Below are positions 16,238-52,925 of a DNA stretch of 64,000 nucleotides, in pieces. The position numbers and the translations under genes are program-made. Below the pieces are notes generated by a model, which did not search any database, had not been told where the DNA came from, and saw only the letters and a program-made list of their open reading frames with translations. Positions within the stretch are counted from its first letter, which is position 1, and each line of letters begins with the position of its first letter. Where the stretch lies: NCBI GenBank assembly GCA_964544235.1, contig CAZIZY010000007.1:3043-67042 (forward strand). Direction: 5' to 3'. The stretch is from an uncultured Nitrosopumilales archaeon. Lineage in GTDB: Archaea > Thermoproteota > Nitrososphaeria > Nitrososphaerales > CAZIZY01.

Positions 16238-16303
16238 TTACTTCATAACGCTTAAATAGTTTACTACCGGAAGTTGTATACTATTAGGAGATTATGCTTA
16301 AAA

Positions 16304-17986
16304 ATGTCTCAATTTAACCCTGGTTCACAACCTATAATTCTTTTAAAAGAAGGTAGTAGTCAATCTTCTGGAAAAGATGCCCAAAAAAATAATATAATGG
16401 CTGCAAAATTAATTGCTGAAATCGTTAAATCATCTTTAGGACCTCGAGGAATGGATAAAATGCTTGTTGATTCCATGGGTGATGTTACTATTACTAATGA
16501 TGGTGCAACTATGCTTAAAGAAATAGATGTACAACATCCTGCTGCTAAAATGCTTGTCGAAGTTTCTAAAACTACTGATAGTGAAGTTGGTGATGGAACA
16601 ACTTCTGCAGTAATTCTTTCTGGTATGTTACTTGAAAAAGCTGAAGAACTAATTGATAAAGACGTTCATCCTACTGTAATTGTTAATGGATACAAAAGAG
16701 CATCTGTACAAGCTTTAGAGGCTCTTAAGAAAATATCTGAAAAGATTCCTGATGGAGATCGAAAATGGTTAATTAAAGTAGCTCATACAAGTATGCAAAG
16801 TAAACTTATTGCTAGAGCTGCTTCTGATCTTGCTCCTATAGTAGTTGATTCTGTTTTGGCAGTAGCTGAGAAATCAAATAAACAATATACTGTTGATATT
16901 GATAATATTAAGATTGAAAAAAAGCCTGGCGGATCTATAACTGATACTAAAATGGTTTCGGGTATTGTTTTAGATAAAGAAGTTACTCATTCTGGAATGC
17001 CTACTAAAGTCAGTAATGCTAAATTAGCTTTAGTGAGTGCTCCTATTGAAATCGAAAAACCTGAGTTTGACGCTAAATTAAATATAAATGATCCTACTAT
17101 GATGAAGAAATTCCTTGATGAGGAAAATGACCTTCTTAAAAACATGGTTGATTCAATTAAATCTGTTGGCGCTAATGTTTTAATCTGTCAAAAGGGAATT
17201 GATGATGTTGCTCAACATTATCTTGCTAAATATGGAATTCTAGCAGTACGTCGTGCAAAAGAAAGTGATATGACTAAACTTGCTAAAGCTACTGGAGGAA
17301 GAATAATTAACAATCTTGATGATCTTTCTAAAAAAGATCTAGGTCAAGCTAAAATCGTAGAAGAGCGTAAAGTGGAAGAAGATAAATGGGTATTTATCGA
17401 AGGATGCAAAGATCCTAAAGCTGTTACTATCTTAGTTAGAGGAGGACAACAACGGGTAGTTGATGAAGTTGAACGATCAATGAATGATTCTTTAATGGTC
17501 ACTAAAGATGTTCTTGAAAAACCTTCAATAGTTGCTGGTGGTGGTGCATCTGAAACTGAAGCTGCTCAACATGTATTCAAATGGGCTGAAAAACTTAGTG
17601 GAAGAGAACAACTAGCTGCGCAAAAATTTGCTGAAGCTTTAGAATCTATAGCTGTTACTTTAGCTTCTAACGCCGGTTTAGATCCTATTGATGCACAAGT
17701 TGAATTACGATCTAAACATTCTGGTGGAGCTAAAGGTAAATGGTTTGGCGTAGACATCCATGAAAGTAAGATACGTGATATGTATCAAAATGACGTATTT
17801 GAACCAGTTGTAGTTAAAGAACAGATTATTAAAGCTGCTACAGAGGCTACATCTATGATTCTACGTGTCGATGATGTTATAGCTACTGGAAAATCTAGTG
17901 CTCCTCCTATGCCACCTGGCGGTATGGGCGGTATGGGCGGTATGGGCGGCATGGGCGGCATGGGCGGAATGCCTATGGGAATGTAA
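16304..17986 (+). CDS. ths: Thermosome subunit (group II chaperonin)
   Basis: [31 protein letters not shown] and VAGGGASE. I prefer the ATG at 16304 ([17 protein letters not shown]) over the TTG at 16274. Confidence 0.95.
17918..17971 (+). repeat. Six 9-bp tandem units (ggc ggy atg) encoding the (GGM)n chaperonin C-terminal tail
   Basis: The sequence ggcggtatg is repeated and the protein ends [23 protein letters not shown]. Confidence 0.9.
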
Positions 17987-18966: not shown

Positions 18967-19070
18967 GCGGGGGTTGCCAAGCTTGGTCAACGGCGCGAGG
19001 TTCAGAAATAACTCATTATTGAGACTCCTCGTCCTTTAGTGGTTCGTGGGTTCAAATCCCACCCTCCGCA
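18967..19070 (+). tRNA. tRNA-Leu(CAG), class II, with a 19-nt canonical 37/38 intron (19007-19025)
   Basis: Acceptor GCGGGGG/CCUCCGC, anticodon stem CGAGG/CCUCG and loop UUCAGA|..|U. The BHB central helix is UUCA/UGAG with 3-nt bulges. T arm GUGGG-UUCAAAU-CCCAC, with a long variable arm. Confidence 0.9.
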
Positions 19071-31959: not shown

Positions 31960-32128
31960 GGGGACGTTGCCCAGCCAGGTAGGGCGTTAGCCGCCTTATT
32001 AATAACAGGCAGCCGCTAAGCGCTCCAGAAGTTTACCCTAAACTATAGGTTAACTGACGAATAGAATGATGTTCTTCAGGAGCTGCGGTGAGACGCAAAG
32101 GTCGCCGGTTCAATTCCGGTCGTCCCCA
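31960..32128 (+). tRNA. tRNA-Trp(CCA) with two introns: 31 nt in the anticodon stem (28/29; 31989-32019) and 64 nt at the canonical 37/38 site (32029-32092)
   Basis: Acceptor GGGGACG/CGUCCCC with A73, D arm GCCC-AGCCAGGUA-GGGC, T arm GCCGG-UUCAAUU-CCGGU. After removing both introns the anticodon arm is UUGCG-CUCCAGA-CGCAA with variable AGGUC (74 nt mature). Intron 1 has a clean BHB (central GGCG/CGCU, bulges UU|A and AA|G, inner GCCGCC/GGCAGC). The intron 2 motif is relaxed. Confidence 0.8.
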
Positions 32129-32168
32129 CCTTTAAATTATCTCGTTACTAATAATATACTTACAAAAT

Positions 32169-45103: not shown

Positions 45104-46708
45104 TTGAGTCTTGATAATACTGAAAAAATAGGACGAGGAACTTGGCTTGATAAAGTTGCTGATGATATTATTAAAAGAGAAAATAAATTATCTCGTAATT
45201 TAGATCTTATTCGTGTTGAAAGTGGGTTAGGAGCATCTGGAATTCCACATGTAGGTAATGCAAGTGATGCTATTCGAGCTCATGGAATTAGATTAGCTAT
45301 TGAAGATATTGGTTATAAATCTGAATTAATAACTTATTCTGATGATTTAGATGGGTTGAGAAAAGTTCCAGATGGATTGCCAGAGGAACTTCAAAAAGAT
45401 TTGGGTAAGCCTGTTTCTCGGATTACCGATCCTTTTGGGTGCCATAATTCATTTGGTCACCATATGAGCTCTATTTTGCATGAAGCTCTAGATGAGGTAA
45501 ATGTAAAGTACACTCATATCAGTGGTGCTGAATCTTATCGTAATGGTATTCTTAATGATAATATTAAGATAATTCTTGAGAATTCAGAATTAATAGGGAA
45601 AAAAATTTCAGATATGCTTGGTCAAGATAAATTTGAAAAAGTTTTACCTTATTACCCTATCTGTGATAACTGCGGTAAACTTTATACTGCTTTAGCTACT
45701 GAATATCTTAGTTCCGAAGAAAAAATTCTCTATACCTGTAAGGATACTAATGTAGGTACTAACATACTGACTGGATGTGATCATACTGGTGAATTAAAAA
45801 TATCTTCTGGAAATGGTAAATTAAGCTGGAAAAGTGAATTTGCAGCAAGATGGAGTGCATTAGATATAAGATATGAAGCATATGGTAAAGATATAATTGA
45901 TTCTGTTAATGTTAATGATTGGATCTCAGATGAAATCTTAAATTTTCCACATCCTTATCATGTTAAATATGAACTATTTTTAGATAAAACTGGTAAAAAA
46001 ATTTCGAAATCACTAGGTAACGTGTTCACTCCACAAACATGGTTACAATATGGCACTCAACAATCATTGTTCTTACTTATGTTCAAAAGAATTGCAGGAG
46101 CTAGAAGTATTTCGGCCTCTGATATTCCCGTATATATGGATGATTATGATAATCTAGAAGATGTTTATTTTGGACGAGCTAAAACATCAAATTTAGCATC
46201 TGAGCGAAAACTTAAAGGACTTTATGAATATGTGAATAATTTAAAACCACCGTCACAAAATATTAATCATGTTCCCTATAGATTACTTGCTCAATTAAGC
46301 AGTATCTCTCCTTCAGAAAATCGTTTAGATTATGTATTAAAGAAATTAAAATCATATCGACTTATCGAAGAGTCAAATCAAACTCTTGAGTCTAAAATAG
46401 ATTTAGCTTTTAATTGGTCTAATGATTTATCTTCTTCTGATTCAATAAATGTTGAAATTAGTGATGAATATAAGACTCCATTACTTTGGTTAAAACAGAA
46501 TCTCACTTCTGAAAAATCACCTGATGAGGTACAAAATATTATTTTTGAAACTTCTCGTAAATTTAATGTTAAACCTCGTGATTTCTTTAAAATACTTTAT
46601 GTTATTCTTTTAAATACCGAACGTGGCCCAAAACTTGGTCCATATATTGTAGATCTTGGGATTGATCGTGTCAAGACTATGATAAATGATCACTTGAACA
46701 AAGAATAA
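45104..46708 (+). CDS. lysK: Lysyl-tRNA synthetase, class I
   Basis: Class I signatures SGIPHVGN (HIGH-like) and KISKSLGN (KMSKS-like). 534 aa, TTG start. Confidence 0.9.
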   Translation: MSLDNTEKIGRGTWLDKVADDIIKRENKLSRNLDLIRVESGLGASGIPHVGNASDAIRAHGIRLAIEDIGYKSELITYSDDLDGLRKVPDGLPEELQKDLGKPVSRITDPFGCHNSFGHHMSSILHEALDEVNVKYTHISGAESYRNGILNDNIKIILENSELIGKKISDMLGQDKFEKVLPYYPICDNCGKLYTALATEYLSSEEKILYTCKDTNVGTNILTGCDHTGELKISSGNGKLSWKSEFAARWSALDIRYEAYGKDIIDSVNVNDWISDEILNFPHPYHVKYELFLDKTGKKISKSLGNVFTPQTWLQYGTQQSLFLLMFKRIAGARSISASDIPVYMDDYDNLEDVYFGRAKTSNLASERKLKGLYEYVNNLKPPSQNINHVPYRLLAQLSSISPSENRLDYVLKKLKSYRLIEESNQTLESKIDLAFNWSNDLSSSDSINVEISDEYKTPLLWLKQNLTSEKSPDEVQNIIFETSRKFNVKPRDFFKILYVILLNTERGPKLGPYIVDLGIDRVKTMINDHLNKE

Positions 46709-46777
46709 TTACTAAAAATATTGATTTTTGTGGATAACGATTATAAGCTAAGTATACCAATGAAGATTTAGCCCGGA

Positions 46778-46907
46778 AGCCCGGTGGAGAGATAATTCGC
46801 CGACTGTAGCGGTCAAGCAAGAGCATTATGCTTCTTGAATACCGGCCTTTGGTCTGGAGAAATAAGGAAGTAAGCCGGTGACGCCAGTTCGAGTCTGGCC
46901 CGGGCTA
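46778..46907 (+). tRNA. tRNA-Gln(UUG) with three introns: 46788-46804 (10/11), 46820-46839 (24/25) and 46853-46872 (37/38)
   Basis: Acceptor AGCCCGG/CCGGGCU (A1-U72), then U8 G9. The spliced D arm is GUGU-AGCGGUCAA-GCAU. Anticodon arm CCGGC-CUUUGGA-GCCGG, T arm GCCAG-UUCGAGU-CUGGC. All three introns sit in 3-nt/4-bp/3-nt BHB motifs. The mature tRNA is 73 nt. Confidence 0.85.
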
Positions 46908-46935
46908 CATGTTTATATAAAATAATTAGGAAAGA

Positions 46936-47028
46936 TGGGCCCGCCCGGATTTGAACCGGGGACCTTTCGATTATCAGTCGAACGCTCCTTGGCCTCCTAT
47001 GGAGTTAACCATGCTGAGCTACGAGCCC
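46936..47028 (-). tRNA. tRNA-Ile(GAU) with an 18-nt intron at the D-loop/D-stem junction (46988-47005)
   Basis: The minus strand reads GGGCUCG-UA-GCUC-AGCAUGGUUA|intron|GAGC-G-UUCGA-CUGAUAA-UCGAA-AGGUC-CCCGG-UUCAAAU-CCGGG-CGGGCCC-A. BHB central helix UGGU/GCCA, inner helix CUCC/GGAG. Confidence 0.9.
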
Positions 47029-47140
47029 ATGTGACGTATTTATTTACATCCACACGTATATCAACCTCAAGTTACTAGTGGTATTAATATTAATCCCTGG
47101 AAAAACTTAAGGCTTGTTCTTTTGGAATTAGTTTAAGAAT

Positions 47141-47244
47141 GCCGAGGTAGCTCAGCCTGGGAGAGCACCCGTCATCCTTTTATTCTAAAAGGATGGGTGA
47201 AGCTGAAGACCGGGCTGTCGCCGGTTCAAGTCCGGCCCTCGGCA
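47141..47244 (+). tRNA. tRNA-Phe(GAA) with a 30-nt intron inside the anticodon stem (30/31; 47172-47201)
   Basis: GCCGAGG-UA-GCUC-AGCCUGGGA-GAGC-A-CCCG|intron|G-CUGAAGA-CCGGG-CUGUC-GCCGG-UUCAAGU-CCGGC-CCUCGGC-A. BHB central helix CACC/GGUG, 9-bp inner helix CAUCCUUUU/AAAAGGAUG. Confidence 0.9.
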
Positions 47245-47361: not shown

Positions 47362-49458
47362 GTGAAATTATTGTCCACTTCAGATAAACGAGTTAGGGCA
47401 ATATATTCTGTTATTGGTTCTTCTAATCGCTTAGAAGTTCTTAGAATCTTACATACTCAGGGTCCTTTGAGCTATTCTGAGTTAAAAACGCTTGCTGGAT
47501 TTAGATCAAAAAAAGAATCTGGTAAATTCGCTTATCATTTAAGAAAGCTTCTTAAACAAATGCTAATTACGCTTAATCGTTCAGAACGCAAATATTCTGT
47601 ATCTGGACTTGGAAGATTAATACTTAATCTTACTCGTCAAATAGAAGAACAGTCATTAATGGAAAGCGGTAAACTTTTTGTAAGAACTTCTAAGCAATCA
47701 ATGGAGGAATTTAATGTTGATAAAATTACACAGTCTCTGATTAGGGAAGGAGGGATGACTCTTGAATCAGCACAAAGAATTACTGAAGAATCTGAGGGCC
47801 GGTTACATAAATTTCAAGCTTCATATCTTACTGCTCCTCTTATTCGAGAAATTGTTAATGCTGTGCTTCTTGAACATGGGTATGAAGAGTATAGACATCG
47901 TTTAACTCGATTAGGAGTTCCTGTATATGATATCAATCTTCTAATGGAAAATGTTGGAAGGAGTTTGTATTCGACTGAAACGGTATTTAAAAAAACCGCT
48001 CAAAATGTGTTCACAGAGTATCTTCTATTAACTCAAATGCCAAAAGATGTATCTGATTCACATGTATCTGGAGACTTACATGTTTCAAATATAGGTGTTT
48101 GGGGCATTATGCCTGATACTTTATTCTTAGACTTAAGCTCTATTGATATTAATGATATAGGTTGGGGTGGAAAAATGCCATGGATTCCTAGATTAATAAA
48201 AAATAATAGCTTAGATGATTCTTTATTTGAATTAATGTCTCTGATTTACTCTTTAAGTCGAGAAATATCAACAGAGATTAGTTTTCAAGGTTTTTTACAA
48301 TTCATTAAAAATAACTCAAAGAAACTTTCTAATGAACAAATTAGTCTTTCTATATCCAGAGCGTTACAACTTTCAAATTTACTTCTTCCGCAATCGTCTA
48401 AACCCTTCATATTGACGTTTCATATTAATTACGAGAATTCCGATGATGACCTTATTAATGATATTCTTAGTGGATACCTTAATTATATTGAATCTGTTCC
48501 TATGTCTTTCATTAAATTGATTTTACATAAAGAAACTCTAAATAAAAAGACGGCTCAATTAGTTCTTGATATAATTAAATTAGGTGGCTCAATAGCTTTT
48601 GATACTTCTGATGAATCTCATTCTTATTTAGGAGTTAAAAATACAGCTTCAACTTCAAATAATTTCGGTGTAGCTGTATTGCATTCTCTTTCTCTTAACC
48701 TTCCTAGATTAGCTACCGAATCTAATAGAGACTCTACTTATTTTAGGGCTAAACTCGCTCTCTTAATTCAATCTGCTGTTCCAGCTTTATCATATCGAAG
48801 AAAATTCATCTTAGATACTATGAACAAAGGTCTTCTTCCCACAATCTCGAAAAATCCAGCAGCTATATCGACTGAAAAAATTCCTTTAATAATTCAACTA
48901 AGTGGTCTTGAAGAAGCCGCTTCTATTTTAGTTGGAGAACGTGCTTCCTCTAAGTTATCTAGCTTTGAAAAAATCATCGCTTCTGCAATAAAATCTACTT
49001 CAGAAAGTGCTAATGATTTAAATGAAGATGGATATGTATCTATCCTTCCTACTGAGGGGAATTTCCGATTAGCTTCACTTGATTCTAATAAGTATGGCAA
49101 ATCAGTTACTAAAGATATTAAGAAGTATTCTGACATTTCGTTAATTAATTATGAAGATGGTCTTTCTGAAAAAGATCTAGATCGGCATAATAGACCATTT
49201 AAGATGCTTAATGGTGGATACTCTTTGTCTATTTTGCTACCTCATAATATTGATCTTAAGAATTTCAATAACCTGGTTAATATTCTTAAAAATGAGCCTG
49301 GTTTCTTTAGATTAGGAATGTTATTTGGATATTGTTTAGATTGTGGATCTAAGACTCCTTCTCCTTTTACTCGATGTAATTCATGTCGATCTACTTCAAT
49401 CAGAAAAATAAATACAGGTGATGCTTCTGTTAGAGATGATCTCGAAGTTGCTAGTTAA
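47362..49458 (+). CDS. Fusion protein: winged HTH, ATP-cone and a degenerate class III ribonucleotide reductase (NrdD)-like body with a C-terminal zinc ribbon. Putative RNR regulator.
   Basis: wHTH RLEVLRILHTQGPLSYSELKTLAG. ATP-cone KLFVRTSKQSMEEFNVDKITQSLIREGG...IREIVNAVLLEHGYEEYRHRL. NrdD-like SGDLHVSN and SLSLNLPRLA. CLDC-x13-CNSC. There are no other cysteines and no glycyl-radical motif. GTG start. Confidence 0.7.
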   Translation: MKLLSTSDKRVRAIYSVIGSSNRLEVLRILHTQGPLSYSELKTLAGFRSKKESGKFAYHLRKLLKQMLITLNRSERKYSVSGLGRLILNLTRQIEEQSLMESGKLFVRTSKQSMEEFNVDKITQSLIREGGMTLESAQRITEESEGRLHKFQASYLTAPLIREIVNAVLLEHGYEEYRHRLTRLGVPVYDINLLMENVGRSLYSTETVFKKTAQNVFTEYLLLTQMPKDVSDSHVSGDLHVSNIGVWGIMPDTLFLDLSSIDINDIGWGGKMPWIPRLIKNNSLDDSLFELMSLIYSLSREISTEISFQGFLQFIKNNSKKLSNEQISLSISRALQLSNLLLPQSSKPFILTFHINYENSDDDLINDILSGYLNYIESVPMSFIKLILHKETLNKKTAQLVLDIIKLGGSIAFDTSDESHSYLGVKNTASTSNNFGVAVLHSLSLNLPRLATESNRDSTYFRAKLALLIQSAVPALSYRRKFILDTMNKGLLPTISKNPAAISTEKIPLIIQLSGLEEAASILVGERASSKLSSFEKIIASAIKSTSESANDLNEDGYVSILPTEGNFRLASLDSNKYGKSVTKDIKKYSDISLINYEDGLSEKDLDRHNRPFKMLNGGYSLSILLPHNIDLKNFNNLVNILKNEPGFFRLGMLFGYCLDCGSKTPSPFTRCNSCRSTSIRKINTGDASVRDDLEVAS

Positions 49459-49586: not shown

Positions 49587-52500
49587 ATGGTGAATAACGT
49601 TTTGGATAAATCTGGAAATATTGAATTAACTGATAATTTTGATGAACTCTTATTAAATCGGGTTCAGCTTGAAGGGGTTAAAGGATTAAAGATTCCTAGA
49701 TTATTCACTAAAACTGGTGAAAATGTATTTGATAATTTTGATTGGCAAAATAACTCAAGTATTCTCAGGGATTCAACTGGCCTAACAGTATTTGAGATGG
49801 ATGATGTTGAAGTTCCCAAGTTTTGGAGTCAAGTTGCTATTGATGTTCTTGCACAAAAGTATTTTAGAAAACAAGGTGTTCCTCAATACGATAAAAATGG
49901 AGTACAATTGTTTAATGATAATGGGGCTCCTATTCTCGGATCTGAAAAGTCACTTAAACAAGTTGTTCATAGGTTAGCTGGTTGTTGGACTTTTTGGGGT
50001 AAAAAATATGGTTATTTTGCATCTGAGGAAGACTCTCAATCATTTTACGATGAATTAAGCTATATGCTTATCTCTCAGATGGCTGCACCTAATTCTCCTC
50101 AGTGGTTTAACACAGGATTAAATTATGTTTATGGAATTACTGGACCTAGTCAAGGGCATTATTATTATGATCCTGATTCAAAACAGGTAGTTAAATCACA
50201 AGATGAATATTCCCATCCTCAATCCCATGCTTGTTTTATTCAACCGATCCGTGATGATTTAGTGAATGAAGGAGGAATAATGGATTTATGGGTAAGAGAA
50301 GCTAGAATATTTAAATTAGGATCAGGTACTGGAACTAATTTCTCTTCTTTAAGGGGTAAAGGAGAATCTCTTTCTGGTGGAGGAAAATCATCAGGAGTAA
50401 TGTCATTCTTACGAATTGGAGACACAGTTGGAGGAAGTATCAAATCTGGTGGAACTACTAGAAGAGCCGCTAAAATGGTAGTCTTAAACGTAGATCATCC
50501 TGAAATTGAAGATTTTATTAGTTGGAAAATGAACGAAGAACTCAAAGTTGCAGCTTTAGTTAATTCTGGGTATTCTTCCGACTTTGAAGGTGAAGCTTAT
50601 CAAACTGTTTCTGGACAAAACTCTAATAATTCTGTACGAATGACTGACGGATTTATGAGGGCTGTATTAGATGATCGTGATTGGGATCTAACTGCAAGAA
50701 CTGATGGACATGTTATGAAGTCAGTTAAAGCTAGGGATTTATGGGATAAAATATCAAATGCAGCGTGGTATTGTGCTGATCCTGGATTGCAATTTGATAC
50801 TACTTGTAATGATTGGAATACATGTCCTGAAACAGATCGAATTAATGCTACTAATCCTTGTTCTGAGTATAATTTCATAGATAATACTGCATGTAATTTG
50901 GCTTCACTTAATCTCAGTAAATTCTTTGATTCTGATAAATTATGTTTTGATATTCCTGCTTTCAAACATGCTATTCGATTATGGACTATTGTGTTAGAAA
51001 TCTCTGTATTAATGGCTCAATATCCTAGTCAAGAAATAGCTATCAATAGTTATAAAACTAGAACTCTAGGACTCGGTTTCACAAATCTTGGTTCAATTCT
51101 AATGGTTTCCGGACTTCCTTATGATTCTGATGAAGCTCGATCTGTTTGTTCTAGTGTTACCGCTATAATGACAGGTGAATCATATGCTACTTCTGCTGAA
51201 CTTGCTTGTTTATTTGGTCCTTTTGCTGAATCTAATAAAAATAGAGAACATATGTTGAAAGTTATTCGTAACCATAGAAGAGTAGTTTATGGGGTTAATA
51301 CCGATGAATTTGAAGATATTTCTGTTCCTCCTACTGTTCTAGATAATAAGATTTGTCCTCCTGATTTGCTAAAGGCTTCTAAAGACTCTTGGGATAGGGC
51401 TTTAACTCTAGGTGAACGATTTGGTTATAGAAATGCGCAGACTACATTAATTGCTCCAACTGGAACTATTAGTCTAGTAATGGATTGTGATACTACTGGA
51501 ATAGAACCTGATTTTGCTTTGGTGAAATTCAAAAAACTAGTCGGTGGTGGGTATTTTAAACTTGTTAATCAATCTATCAGCGTTTCTCTTAAGAACCTAG
51601 GTTATTCCAAAGATCACGTTAATGAAATAATTAGATATATTGCTGGAAGTAATTCTTTAAAGAAATCTCCTTACATTAATGAATCTGCATTAAAGAAAAA
51701 AGGCTTCATAAAAGATGATATACGTAAAGTTGAGAAGGCATTATCTTCTGTATTTGAAATTAAACATGCTTTTGTGAATTCTATTATAGGGCCTGATTGT
51801 TTGGAAAGATTAGGCATTAAAGAAGGACAATCTAGTAATCCTACTTTTAATTTACTCAAAGTACTTGGTTTTAGCGATATTGAAATTGAAGCTGCAAACG
51901 ATTATGTTTGTGGTTCAGGAACTATTGAAGGAGCGCCCCATCTAAAAGAGGAACATTATCCTATATTCGATTGTTCAACTAAATGCGGTAAAAATGGAAC
52001 ACGATTTATCAATTATATGGCGCATGTTGATATGATGGCTGCTTCACAACCATTACTTTCAGGTTCTATAAGTAAAACAATTAATATGCCTAATCATGCT
52101 ACTGTTGAAGAAGTTAAAACTGTATATATGGATAGTTGGAAAAAAGGCCTTAAAACTATTGCATTATATCGTGATGGCTGTAAATTATCTCAACCATTAT
52201 CCACTAAAGCATTTAATGAAGAAACTGAGAATTTAGTTCAAAAACCATCTAGAAGGAGGTTACCTGATGAAAGAAAGTCTATTACTCATAAATTTAGAAT
52301 AGGTACTCACGAGGGATATTTACATCTTGGATTATACGAAGACAATTCTCCCGGAGAATTATTCATTACTATGTCAAAACAAGGTAGTACTCTTGCTGGT
52401 TTAATGGATTCTTTTGCTACTTCTGTTTCAATTTCTCTTCAATATGGAGTTCCACTTAAAGTATTAGTAGATAAATTTGTTCATACTCGTTTTGAACCAT

Positions 52501-52925
52501 CTGGTTGGACAAATAATCCTCAAATCCGTGTAGCAAAATCTTTGATGGATTACATATTTAGATGGATTGCATTAAAATTCCTTCCTCAAGACGATTTAAC
52601 CCATTTAGGCTACAATGAAATTGTTGAATCAAATGGCGAGGTTCCTTCAAATGGTGATTCTGAATCAAATGGTGATATTACTTCAAATGGTAATCTTACT
52701 TCAAATGGTGATGTTGAGTCAAACGGTGATGTTGAAATAAATAGTAATGATATCTCTTTTGGACCTCTAACTTCTGATTCAGGTGTACTTAATGACTCTT
52801 CTACCAAAACAAAGTTTGATGTAATTTCTGATGCTCCTACTTGTACAGATTGTGGTTCATTAATGAGGCGAAGTGGATCTTGTTATTTGTGTTCTAGCTG
52901 TGGAAGCACTACAGGATGCTCTTAA
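49587..52925 (+). CDS. nrdJ: Adenosylcobalamin-dependent ribonucleotide reductase (class II, NrdJ)
   Basis: 1112 aa. NPCSEYNFIDNTACNLASLNL (thiyl Cys loop), GGTRRAAKMV, TTLIAPTGTIS, and a C-terminal redox/Zn tail CTDCGS..CYLCSSCGSTTGCS. Confidence 0.9.
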   Translation: MVNNVLDKSGNIELTDNFDELLLNRVQLEGVKGLKIPRLFTKTGENVFDNFDWQNNSSILRDSTGLTVFEMDDVEVPKFWSQVAIDVLAQKYFRKQGVPQYDKNGVQLFNDNGAPILGSEKSLKQVVHRLAGCWTFWGKKYGYFASEEDSQSFYDELSYMLISQMAAPNSPQWFNTGLNYVYGITGPSQGHYYYDPDSKQVVKSQDEYSHPQSHACFIQPIRDDLVNEGGIMDLWVREARIFKLGSGTGTNFSSLRGKGESLSGGGKSSGVMSFLRIGDTVGGSIKSGGTTRRAAKMVVLNVDHPEIEDFISWKMNEELKVAALVNSGYSSDFEGEAYQTVSGQNSNNSVRMTDGFMRAVLDDRDWDLTARTDGHVMKSVKARDLWDKISNAAWYCADPGLQFDTTCNDWNTCPETDRINATNPCSEYNFIDNTACNLASLNLSKFFDSDKLCFDIPAFKHAIRLWTIVLEISVLMAQYPSQEIAINSYKTRTLGLGFTNLGSILMVSGLPYDSDEARSVCSSVTAIMTGESYATSAELACLFGPFAESNKNREHMLKVIRNHRRVVYGVNTDEFEDISVPPTVLDNKICPPDLLKASKDSWDRALTLGERFGYRNAQTTLIAPTGTISLVMDCDTTGIEPDFALVKFKKLVGGGYFKLVNQSISVSLKNLGYSKDHVNEIIRYIAGSNSLKKSPYINESALKKKGFIKDDIRKVEKALSSVFEIKHAFVNSIIGPDCLERLGIKEGQSSNPTFNLLKVLGFSDIEIEAANDYVCGSGTIEGAPHLKEEHYPIFDCSTKCGKNGTRFINYMAHVDMMAASQPLLSGSISKTINMPNHATVEEVKTVYMDSWKKGLKTIALYRDGCKLSQPLSTKAFNEETENLVQKPSRRRLPDERKSITHKFRIGTHEGYLHLGLYEDNSPGELFITMSKQGSTLAGLMDSFATSVSISLQYGVPLKVLVDKFVHTRFEPSGWTNNPQIRVAKSLMDYIFRWIALKFLPQDDLTHLGYNEIVESNGEVPSNGDSESNGDITSNGNLTSNGDVESNGDVEINSNDISFGPLTSDSGVLNDSSTKTKFDVISDAPTCTDCGSLMRRSGSCYLCSSCGSTTGCS
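52629..52754 (+). repeat. About seven in-frame 18-bp tandem repeats (tca aat ggt gat nnn nnn), encoding (SNGDxx)n in the NrdJ C-terminal linker
   Basis: The protein reads ESNGEVPSNGDSESNGDITSNGNLTSNGDVESNGDVEINSND. The DNA units are nearly identical. Confidence 0.85.

Follow-up and report, generated by a model that had tools for sequence, protein, structure and literature searches.

The intron content of archaeal transfer RNA (tRNA) genes differs widely between lineages. In Table S7 of the tRNAscan-SE 2.0 survey, which covers 217 genomes, the density is 0.84 introns per gene in Thermoproteales, 0.40 in 11 thaumarchaeal genomes and 0.26 in Nitrosopumilales (PMC8450103). Pyrobaculum calidifontis, with 71 introns in 46 genes, heads the complete genomes of that survey, and genes with three introns account for 16 of 10,372 archaeal tRNA genes, all of them from Thermoproteales and none among 498 thaumarchaeal genes (PMC8450103). 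It has also been reported that 92-95% of the tRNA genes of Atabeyarchaeia and Freyarchaeia are interrupted (PMC11291895), and thus extreme density outside Thermoproteales is no longer unprecedented. Thaumarchaeota combine a splicing endonuclease EndA of the (alpha-beta)2 type with many non-canonical introns (PMC4090602, PMC5829648, PMC8450103); in this type a specific loop confers a broad substrate range, and the enzyme has been tied to relaxed, non-canonical and multiple introns (PMC4090602, PMC5829648). Here we describe a cluster of three interrupted tRNA genes (Gln, Ile and Phe) at 46770-47244 of a 64,000-nt stretch of DNA, hereafter the window, from an uncultured Nitrosopumilales archaeon (contig CAZIZY010000007.1, positions 3,043 to 67,042, assembly GCA_964544235.1). 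Multi-intron tRNA genes with bulge-helix-bulge (BHB) motifs are already known in Thaumarchaeota; the points of note here are the lineage, the high density, seen in a small sample, a three-intron gene outside Thermoproteales, and an intron with a recognition helix that reaches into the acceptor stem, beside a leader that repeats the acceptor strand.

We consider it highly probable that the tRNA-Gln(UUG), tRNA-Ile(GAU) and tRNA-Phe(GAA) genes are functional and that they are interrupted by five short (17-30 nt) BHB introns, three of which lie in tRNA-Gln. An earlier note, made from the DNA letters alone, had proposed this arrangement, and its coordinates at 46770-47244 all match the sequence. 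With the intervals 46788-46804, 46820-46839 and 46853-46872 taken out of Gln, 46988-47005 out of Ile (minus strand) and 47172-47201 out of Phe, products of 73-75 nt remained, in which ARAGORN recognized complete cloverleaves of tRNA-Gln(ttg), tRNA-Ile(gat) and tRNA-Phe(gaa), in agreement with the proposal. Since the exons are colinear within 93-130 nt in each gene, these are neither split nor permuted genes. Four of the five introns occupy non-canonical positions (10/11, 24/25, 21/22 and 30/31), and the exons have 58-70% GC as opposed to 31% in the genome. The elements of the cluster are listed below; for each intron the central, inner and outer helices of the BHB motif are given together with the probability (P) from the shuffle test described afterwards.

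46740-46747, plus strand: putative TATA box ATTATAAG of tRNA-Gln, read from the sequence
46770-46777, plus strand: predicted 8-nt 5' leader AGCCCGGA of tRNA-Gln, its first 7 nt an exact copy of the acceptor 5' strand
46778-46787, plus strand: tRNA-Gln(UUG) exon 1, positions 1-10 (AGCCCGGUGG)
46788-46804, plus strand: Gln intron A, 17 nt, at 10/11; central helix CGGU (C5-U8)/GCCG, inner helix 3 bp (GAG/UUC), outer helix 1 bp (HBh'); P 0.026
46805-46819, plus strand: tRNA-Gln exon 2, positions 11-24
46820-46839, plus strand: Gln intron B, 20 nt, at 24/25; complete hBHBh', central helix CAAG/CUUG, inner helix 4-5 bp (5 bp in the junction test), outer helix 4 bp; P 0.012
46840-46852, plus strand: tRNA-Gln exon 3, positions 25-37, with the anticodon UUG at 46849-46851
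46853-46872, plus strand: Gln intron C, 20 nt, at the canonical 37/38; central helix CUUU/GAAG, inner helix 2 bp, outer helix 7 bp, the anticodon stem serving as outer helix; P 0.115
46873-46907, plus strand: tRNA-Gln exon 4, positions 38-73; discriminator A46907, CCA not encoded
47006-47028, minus strand: tRNA-Ile(GAU) exon 1, positions 1-21 (Rfam, ARAGORN)
46988-47005, minus strand: Ile intron, 18 nt, at 21/22 (D-loop/D-stem); central helix UGGU/GCCA, inner helix 4 bp (CUCC/GGAG), outer helix 0 bp (HBh'); P 0.063
46936-46987, minus strand: tRNA-Ile exon 2, positions 22-73 (Rfam, ARAGORN)
47141-47171, plus strand: tRNA-Phe(GAA) exon 1, positions 1-30 (Rfam, ARAGORN)
47172-47201, plus strand: Phe intron, 30 nt, at 30/31 (anticodon stem), an inverted repeat; central helix CACC/GGUG, inner helix 9-10 bp (10 bp in the junction test), outer helix 2 bp; P 0.0016
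47202-47244, plus strand: tRNA-Phe exon 2, positions 31-73 (Rfam, ARAGORN)

The junctions were placed by a rule calibrated on the canonical intron of a tRNA-Leu gene elsewhere in the window. According to this rule the 5' exon ends in four nucleotides of the central helix followed by two bulge nucleotides, the intron ends in the four complementary nucleotides followed by two bulge nucleotides, and the cut falls after the second nucleotide of each bulge. In all five introns of the cluster the central helix is fully paired (4/4) at the exact positions that the rule prescribes and is bounded by 3-nt bulges. When each intron was shuffled, with the junctions fixed by the mature sequence, the joint probability over the five introns was about 3e-9. 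The compliance with this 3-4-3 geometry claimed in the earlier note is therefore borne out at every junction, and the inner helices that it described were recovered with the lengths listed above. Only intron B tolerates a slide of 1 nt that yields the same mature RNA, the other four junctions being unique. As for the flanking helices, Gln B has a full hBHBh' motif, Gln C and Phe have one short flank each (2 bp), and Gln A and Ile are of the relaxed HBh' type, with one and no outer pairs, respectively; relaxed HBh' motifs need an (alpha-beta)2 or epsilon2 EndA (PMC5829648). For Gln B, Gln C, Ile and Phe, the conformer with the BHB motif is 0.7-2.4 kcal/mol less stable than the local minimum free energy (MFE) fold. 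Assigned in this way from the primary sequence, five BHB introns in three tRNA genes are supported.

Standard tools see little of this arrangement before the introns are removed. On the unspliced window ARAGORN made a single call, a mis-registered 'Phe(aaa)', as opposed to the correct assignment of the three spliced products. Rfam located tRNA-Ile at 46936-47028 on the minus strand (62.7 bits, with a 25-nt insertion) and tRNA-Phe at 47141-47244 (47.1 bits, with a 39-nt insertion), and both insertions coincide with the intron sites. The tRNA-Gln gene was not detected by Rfam in the unspliced window. Below the default filters the tRNA-Leu gene at 18967-19070 was recovered, and with permissive filters tRNA-Trp (31960-32131) appeared only as a weak, spurious 'tmRNA' match. 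As ARAGORN and Rfam overlook or mis-call most genes of this kind, genomes of the lineage would seem to be devoid of tRNA genes.

Comparison with relatives gives an independent view of the exons and of the history of the introns. When GTDB species representatives were scanned for exact matches to the Gln T-arm and 3' acceptor strand, 15 loci were obtained; they belong without exception to Nitrosopumilaceae or Thaumarchaeota metagenome-assembled genomes (MAGs), and 14 of them carry an uninterrupted tRNA-Gln(UUG). A metagenome scan with the whole Gln 3' exon returned four loci, again by exact match, so that a relative with a single substitution in the pattern is missed. The spliced Gln product aligns with the uninterrupted tRNA-Gln of Nitrosopumilus over 73 of 73 positions, colinearly and free of gaps, with five substitutions, two of which form a compensatory change of an anticodon-stem pair (C28-G42 to G28-C42). 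A second thaumarchaeal clade, represented by locus L002 and the metagenome contigs L016, L017 and L019, has introns at exactly 24/25 and 37/38; the spliced L002 product differs from that of the window at one position. In this clade the two introns have only 18 and 12-13 nt and other loop sequences, with the central and inner helices kept. The tRNA-Leu(CAG) of Nitrosopumilus is likewise uninterrupted, as opposed to the canonical intron of the window copy. For Gln and Leu, the genes compared, intron sequence evolves faster than the exons and the product matches uninterrupted orthologues.

Judging from these comparisons, introns B and C are old, because the second thaumarchaeal clade has both of them. 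The intron at 10/11 and the duplicated leader are absent from L002, L016, L017 and L019, and both are also absent from the tRNA-Gln of Nitrosopumilus. Among the loci of the exact-match scans, only the identical contig L018 carries intron A, which would make it an extra intron so far confined to the window lineage among the relatives retrieved. With no intron in Nitrosopumilus, two in the L002 clade and three in the window organism, tRNA-Gln offers a clean case for the study of intron gain. A synteny walk through homologues of the neighbouring lysyl-tRNA synthetase (LysRS) gene, at 57-59% identity, showed that the Elp3-LysRS order is kept; it did not inform on tRNA-Gln, and at some of these loci no tRNA follows LysRS. 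In two distant Nitrososphaerales MAGs a different tRNA (GGGCCCG..., with CCA encoded) was found after LysRS, at L028:4141-4253 and L029:4177-4272, its D-arm/anticodon region bearing one or two insertions of non-canonical type, so that intron-bearing tRNAs beside LysRS recur across the order.

The same pattern extends to every other tRNA gene seen in this organism. Scans for a T-arm with acceptor strand and for GC islands agreed that Leu, Trp, Gln, Ile and Phe are the only non-coding GC-rich tRNA-like loci in the window, which upholds the count of five interrupted genes out of five, with eight introns, that had been made from the sequence, subject to one mismatch in tRNA-Trp described below. 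A sixth gene was found about 1.5 kb past the 3' end of the window, on a locus of the same organism. These genes are:

18967-19070, plus strand: tRNA-Leu(CAG), with a canonical 19-nt intron at 19007-19025, on which the BHB rule was calibrated
31960-32131, plus strand: tRNA-Trp(CCA), with introns at 31989-32019 (28/29, strict BHB) and 32029-32092 (37/38)
L033:14045-14153: tRNA-Ala(CGC), with a G3:U70 pair and two non-canonical introns
L033:14068-14083 and L033:14104-14125: tRNA-Ala introns, at about 23/24 and after position 43 (inner helix 6 bp), respectively

The canonical tRNA-Trp intron (64 nt, 32029-32092) has three of four central pairs, CUCC/GGUG with a U.U mismatch. Two other models of this gene were set aside in favor of the UUGCG/CGCAA pairing with a 5-nt variable loop, which leaves the BHB imperfect: a type-II-like long variable arm, and a 3' splice site at 32084/32085 with a perfect CUCC/GGAG helix, a competing pairing that would mis-place the cut. 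Euryarchaeal tRNA-Trp introns contain a C/D-box guide. In the 32029-32092 intron an adjacent pair CUGA ... AUGAUGU resembles D' and C' boxes; terminal C and D boxes were not seen there, nor did the intron have an Rfam match. In tRNA-Ala the strict rule leaves a mature variable loop of 3 nt (GUC), and since such a loop is unusual, the 3' junction of the second intron may be offset. A walk upstream of the window, where the scaffold is gapped, yielded no additional tRNA. For the organism as a whole, six of the six genes sampled are interrupted, by ten introns, seven of them non-canonical, or about 1.7 introns per gene.

The host itself is thaumarchaeal, which fits the earlier note, where such an intron density was ascribed to Thermoproteales and some Thaumarchaeota. 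The GC content of the window is 29-35%, with about 31% in the genome, and Rfam finds an archaeal signal recognition particle RNA in it. All matches of the class-I LysRS encoded at 45104-46708 are to Thaumarchaeota/Nitrososphaerales; outside its own 90% cluster the best of them, among 5.8 billion proteins, reaches 57-59% identity. The 3' half of tRNA-Gln is identical to that of Nitrosopumilaceae MAGs. By these matches the host is a deep-branching marine member of the Nitrososphaeria that lacks close sequenced relatives. Its population is also represented by contigs in Tara Oceans and further marine metagenomes, with 99.4-100% identity to the window. The lineage, which recurs in marine assemblies of several projects, is abundant yet phylogenetically isolated.

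Regarding the processing of these genes, we infer the following route. Each tRNA gene would be transcribed from its own promoter, and every exon-intron junction of the precursor would fold into two 3-nt bulges separated by 4 bp. EndA, which in Thaumarchaeota is of the broad-specificity (alpha-beta)2 type, would cut after the second nucleotide of each bulge and the exons would be ligated by RtcB; RNase P, 3' processing and CCA addition would then complete the tRNA. In this organism a gene for the RtcB ligase (PF01139) lies at L036:1-505, roughly 8 kb upstream of where the window starts. Another small gene could be concealed by a run of N, a gap in the scaffold, at about L036:4220-4320. For tRNA-Gln three excisions would be required. 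The anticodon stem, as the outer helix of intron C, draws on C27-G29, and so does the outer helix of intron B (G·C·G·G·U with A26-G29); the B and C motifs are therefore mutually exclusive, and excision is probably stepwise. Such exclusion of motifs in multi-intron genes was noted earlier by the tRNAscan-SE authors (PMC8450103).

The tRNA-Gln gene has a further peculiarity, in that the 7-nt acceptor 5' strand AGCCCGG at 46778-46784 is preceded by an identical copy at 46770-46776, the two forming a perfect tandem of period 8 (46770-46777 and 46778-46785). This exact repeat had also been pointed out in the earlier note. AGCCCGG occurs four times in the window, always inside the tRNA cluster, versus 0.84 occurrences expected per window, and from the 7-mer rate we put at about 1e-3 the probability that a copy lies by chance no further than 30 nt upstream of one of the six tRNAs. 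The leader copy is therefore improbable as a chance match. A start of tRNA-Gln at 46770, with the copy as the real acceptor strand followed by A8 A9 G10 and an intron at 46780-46804, was considered and rejected: its central helix (CGGA/GCCG) has an A.G mismatch, U8 is lost, and the mature sequence deviates from that of the orthologues, AGCCCGGU(G/A)GUGU. In archaea the center of the TATA box usually lies about 26 nt from the transcription start. With this spacing, the element ATTATAAG places the predicted start, a T|A step, at about A46770, so that the leader would be exactly AGCCCGGA; TATA-like candidates at a roughly similar distance, as judged by eye in AT-rich sequence, precede the other tRNA genes as well. 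In addition, the leader with its acceptor copy (46760-46776) shows 82% complementarity, over 17 nt, to the 3' trailer (46900-46916), and a start further upstream could give a long leader-trailer stem. The 10-nt AU-rich extension of this pairing, for which we estimate a chance probability of about 1%, was set aside, as it lies upstream of the predicted start.

Since the recognition helix of intron A uses acceptor nucleotides C5-U8, this intron is in competition with the acceptor stem. The earlier note had speculated that the leader copy pairs with the 3' acceptor strand while the BHB forms. Such pairing of the leader copy could indeed leave C5-U8 available to the helix of intron A; once splicing is complete, the strands would be exchanged isoenergetically and RNase P would again find the true acceptor stem. 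In RNAfold ensembles that include the leader, the copy pairs with the 3' acceptor strand with a probability of about 1, and the central pairs G6-C, G7-C and U8-G with the intron GCCG reach 0.99, with C5-G at 0.20. In ensembles that lack the leader, the true acceptor stem takes shape, and the probability of the pairs G6-C, G7-C and U8-G falls to about 0.1. Enforcing the strict motif of intron A (BHB-A) raised the energy over that of the MFE fold by 8.2 kcal/mol when the leader was present and by 12.3 kcal/mol when it was not. Thus the pairing that had been suggested agrees with the folding models, but the MFE fold does not form the strict BHB-A. That the leader copy has a selected function seems to us rather unlikely. 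A more specific proposal, that it is a selected 'stand-in' strand at the 5' end of the transcript, a cis device undescribed so far, in a thaumarchaeal lineage of the cold ocean whose tRNAs may all be interrupted, we regard as clearly unlikely. If it were true, a stand-in leader would let BHB introns colonize positions that overlap the acceptor stem.

Several points weigh against our interpretation of the locus and have to be set beside the alternatives. The junctions are deduced from DNA rather than from RNA evidence. No EndA gene (tRNA_int_endo) was found in the roughly 84 kb examined, by Pfam on 26 open reading frames (ORFs) of the window and in the precomputed Pfam lists of the flanking loci, which is unsurprising for a single-copy gene. 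BHB-A is weak, with +0.5 kcal/mol versus -10.9 for the competing local fold and an outer helix of 1 bp. Moreover, the metagenome contig L024, a variant from the same population, has a U34-to-G change in the Gln anticodon (UUG to GUG), which is hard to square with function unless it is an assembly error, and which also breaks the central helix of intron C. Four of the 40 differences of L024 fall inside the 130-nt Gln gene (window-equivalent positions 46849, 46804, 46853 and 46859), and its tRNA-Phe carries a D-stem change, U12-to-G (window-equivalent 47152). These changes may reflect an assembly or consensus error, or a real degenerate allele. Together with the poor thermodynamics of BHB-A, the L024 changes in Gln and Phe would fit the view that we are dealing with decaying pseudogenes (all of the interrupted genes, or tRNA-Gln at the least), with insertions that stay unspliced and BHB pairings that are incidental. 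We consider this extremely improbable, as the exons are GC-rich for such a genome and fold into perfect cloverleaves, they are near-identical to those of orthologues while the introns diverge, and the 3-4-3 rule holds at every junction with the joint probability given above. Every tRNA gene seen in the organism is interrupted, and they cannot all be dead.

Functional, intron-bearing genes are compatible with more than one origin of the leader copy. There is about an even chance that the gene and intron model is right and the copy is a neutral 8-bp tandem duplication (AGCCCGGN x2) produced by replication slippage, with no role in splicing, in which case intron A would be recognized co-transcriptionally or by induced fit. 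A selected function is no more likely than neutral slippage. A perfect tandem of period 8 is a typical slippage product, the leaders of orthologues are not conserved and none has the copy, and we have a single example, with no independent second one. Furthermore, BHB-A lies near the 5' end and is foldable about 115 nt before the 3' acceptor is transcribed; should it form that early, ahead of the 3' acceptor strand, a leader copy would not be needed. With the leader present the strict BHB-A is still disfavored, the MFE fold zipping through the 5' bulge instead, and the pairing of the leader follows near-automatically from the presence of two identical strands. The transcription start at the leader is itself a prediction, and as every contig with the leader copy is at least 99.4% identical, its conservation carries no weight. 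On the other hand, the copy accompanies the only intron with a recognition helix that overlaps the acceptor stem, its position agrees with the predicted transcription start, and its presence makes BHB-A about 4 kcal/mol less costly in the models; these points against neutrality are not decisive.

The duplicate could instead be a scar left by the insertion of intron A, either microhomology-mediated or through duplication of a segment derived from intron C, and would then mark a recent gain; we find this quite improbable. It would accord with the lack of intron A in the sister clade that has introns B and C, and with a direct repeat in the gene:

46785-46795: TGGAGAGATAA, at the exon 1/intron A junction (UGG|AGAGAUAA)
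46855-46865: TGGAGAAATAA, inside intron C (UGGAGAAAUAA), matching the former at 10 of 11 positions

For Thermoproteales it has, in addition, been proposed that introns transpose from one tRNA site to another (Fujishima et al. 2010, in the account given by PMC4090602). The direct repeat hints that intron A may derive from intron C, but it is statistically near chance, since an 11-mer with one mismatch is expected at an estimated 0.1-1 pair in a 600-nt AT-rich region. We know of no mechanism of BHB-intron gain that duplicates upstream exon sequence, which also speaks against a scar.

Some neighboring features of the window may be mentioned. Directly downstream of tRNA-Phe, 47362-49458 encodes a 698-aa protein in which an ATP-cone and an NrdD-like domain are joined to a helix-turn-helix domain (DUF7347). 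Next, at 49587-52925, comes an unusually long ribonucleotide reductase of class-II type (1112 aa), with a low-complexity tail of SNGD repeats and a zinc-ribbon-like CxxC motif at the C-terminus. The GC maximum of the window (77%), at 17893-17984, is not an RNA gene; it is a GGTATGGGCGG tandem that encodes the (GGM)n C-terminal tail of a 570-aa ORF (16274-17986). By analogy with chaperonin/thermosome C-terminal tails, we presume that this ORF may encode a thermosome subunit.

When compared with known systems, the leader copy comes closest to the leaders of split tRNAs in Nanoarchaeum equitans and Caldivirga and to introns near gene ends, where flanking non-tRNA sequence pairs toward an EndA substrate (PMC4033280, PMC4390854, PMC8450103). 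In those cases, however, the leader is a strand of the BHB helix, whereas here the copy would pair with the 3' acceptor strand, standing in for the 5' strand. No described precedent for such a stand-in acceptor copy was found in the literature searched. If the leader copy is functional, it would explain an intron at a site where the recognition helix clashes with the acceptor stem.

The introns themselves resemble those captured by the Thaumarchaeota-specific BHB covariance model of tRNAscan-SE 2.0 in being short, with relaxed flanks, and located in the D-arm and anticodon stem (PMC8450103). The load is far heavier, with ten introns in six genes versus the 0.40 introns per gene of surveyed Thaumarchaeota (PMC8450103), and with intronless Gln and Leu genes in Nitrosopumilus. 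In this respect the organism resembles Atabeyarchaeia and Freyarchaeia, non-hyperthermophiles in which nearly all tRNA genes are interrupted, many at non-canonical positions, and more than half of the genes have multiple introns (PMC11291895); those archaea belong to another phylum, and their figures come from complete genomes as opposed to six genes in this case.

The tRNA-Gln gene, a single colinear gene with three introns, is best compared with the three-intron genes of Thermoproteales, such as, in P. calidifontis, pre-tRNA-Glu(UUC) and, in P. islandicum, pre-tRNA-Pro(UGG) (PMC4390854, PMC8450103). Like these, it combines canonical and non-canonical BHB introns whose motifs are partly mutually exclusive, which would call for stepwise removal and a broad-specificity EndA. 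It differs from them in its isotype, in the positions of the introns (10/11, 24/25 and 37/38) and in its host, a planktonic marine thaumarchaeon with 31% GC rather than a hyperthermophilic crenarchaeon. Thus, a heavy load of tRNA introns, described earlier in Thermoproteales and later in some Asgard archaea, is also found in a mesophilic, low-GC, planktonic thaumarchaeon.

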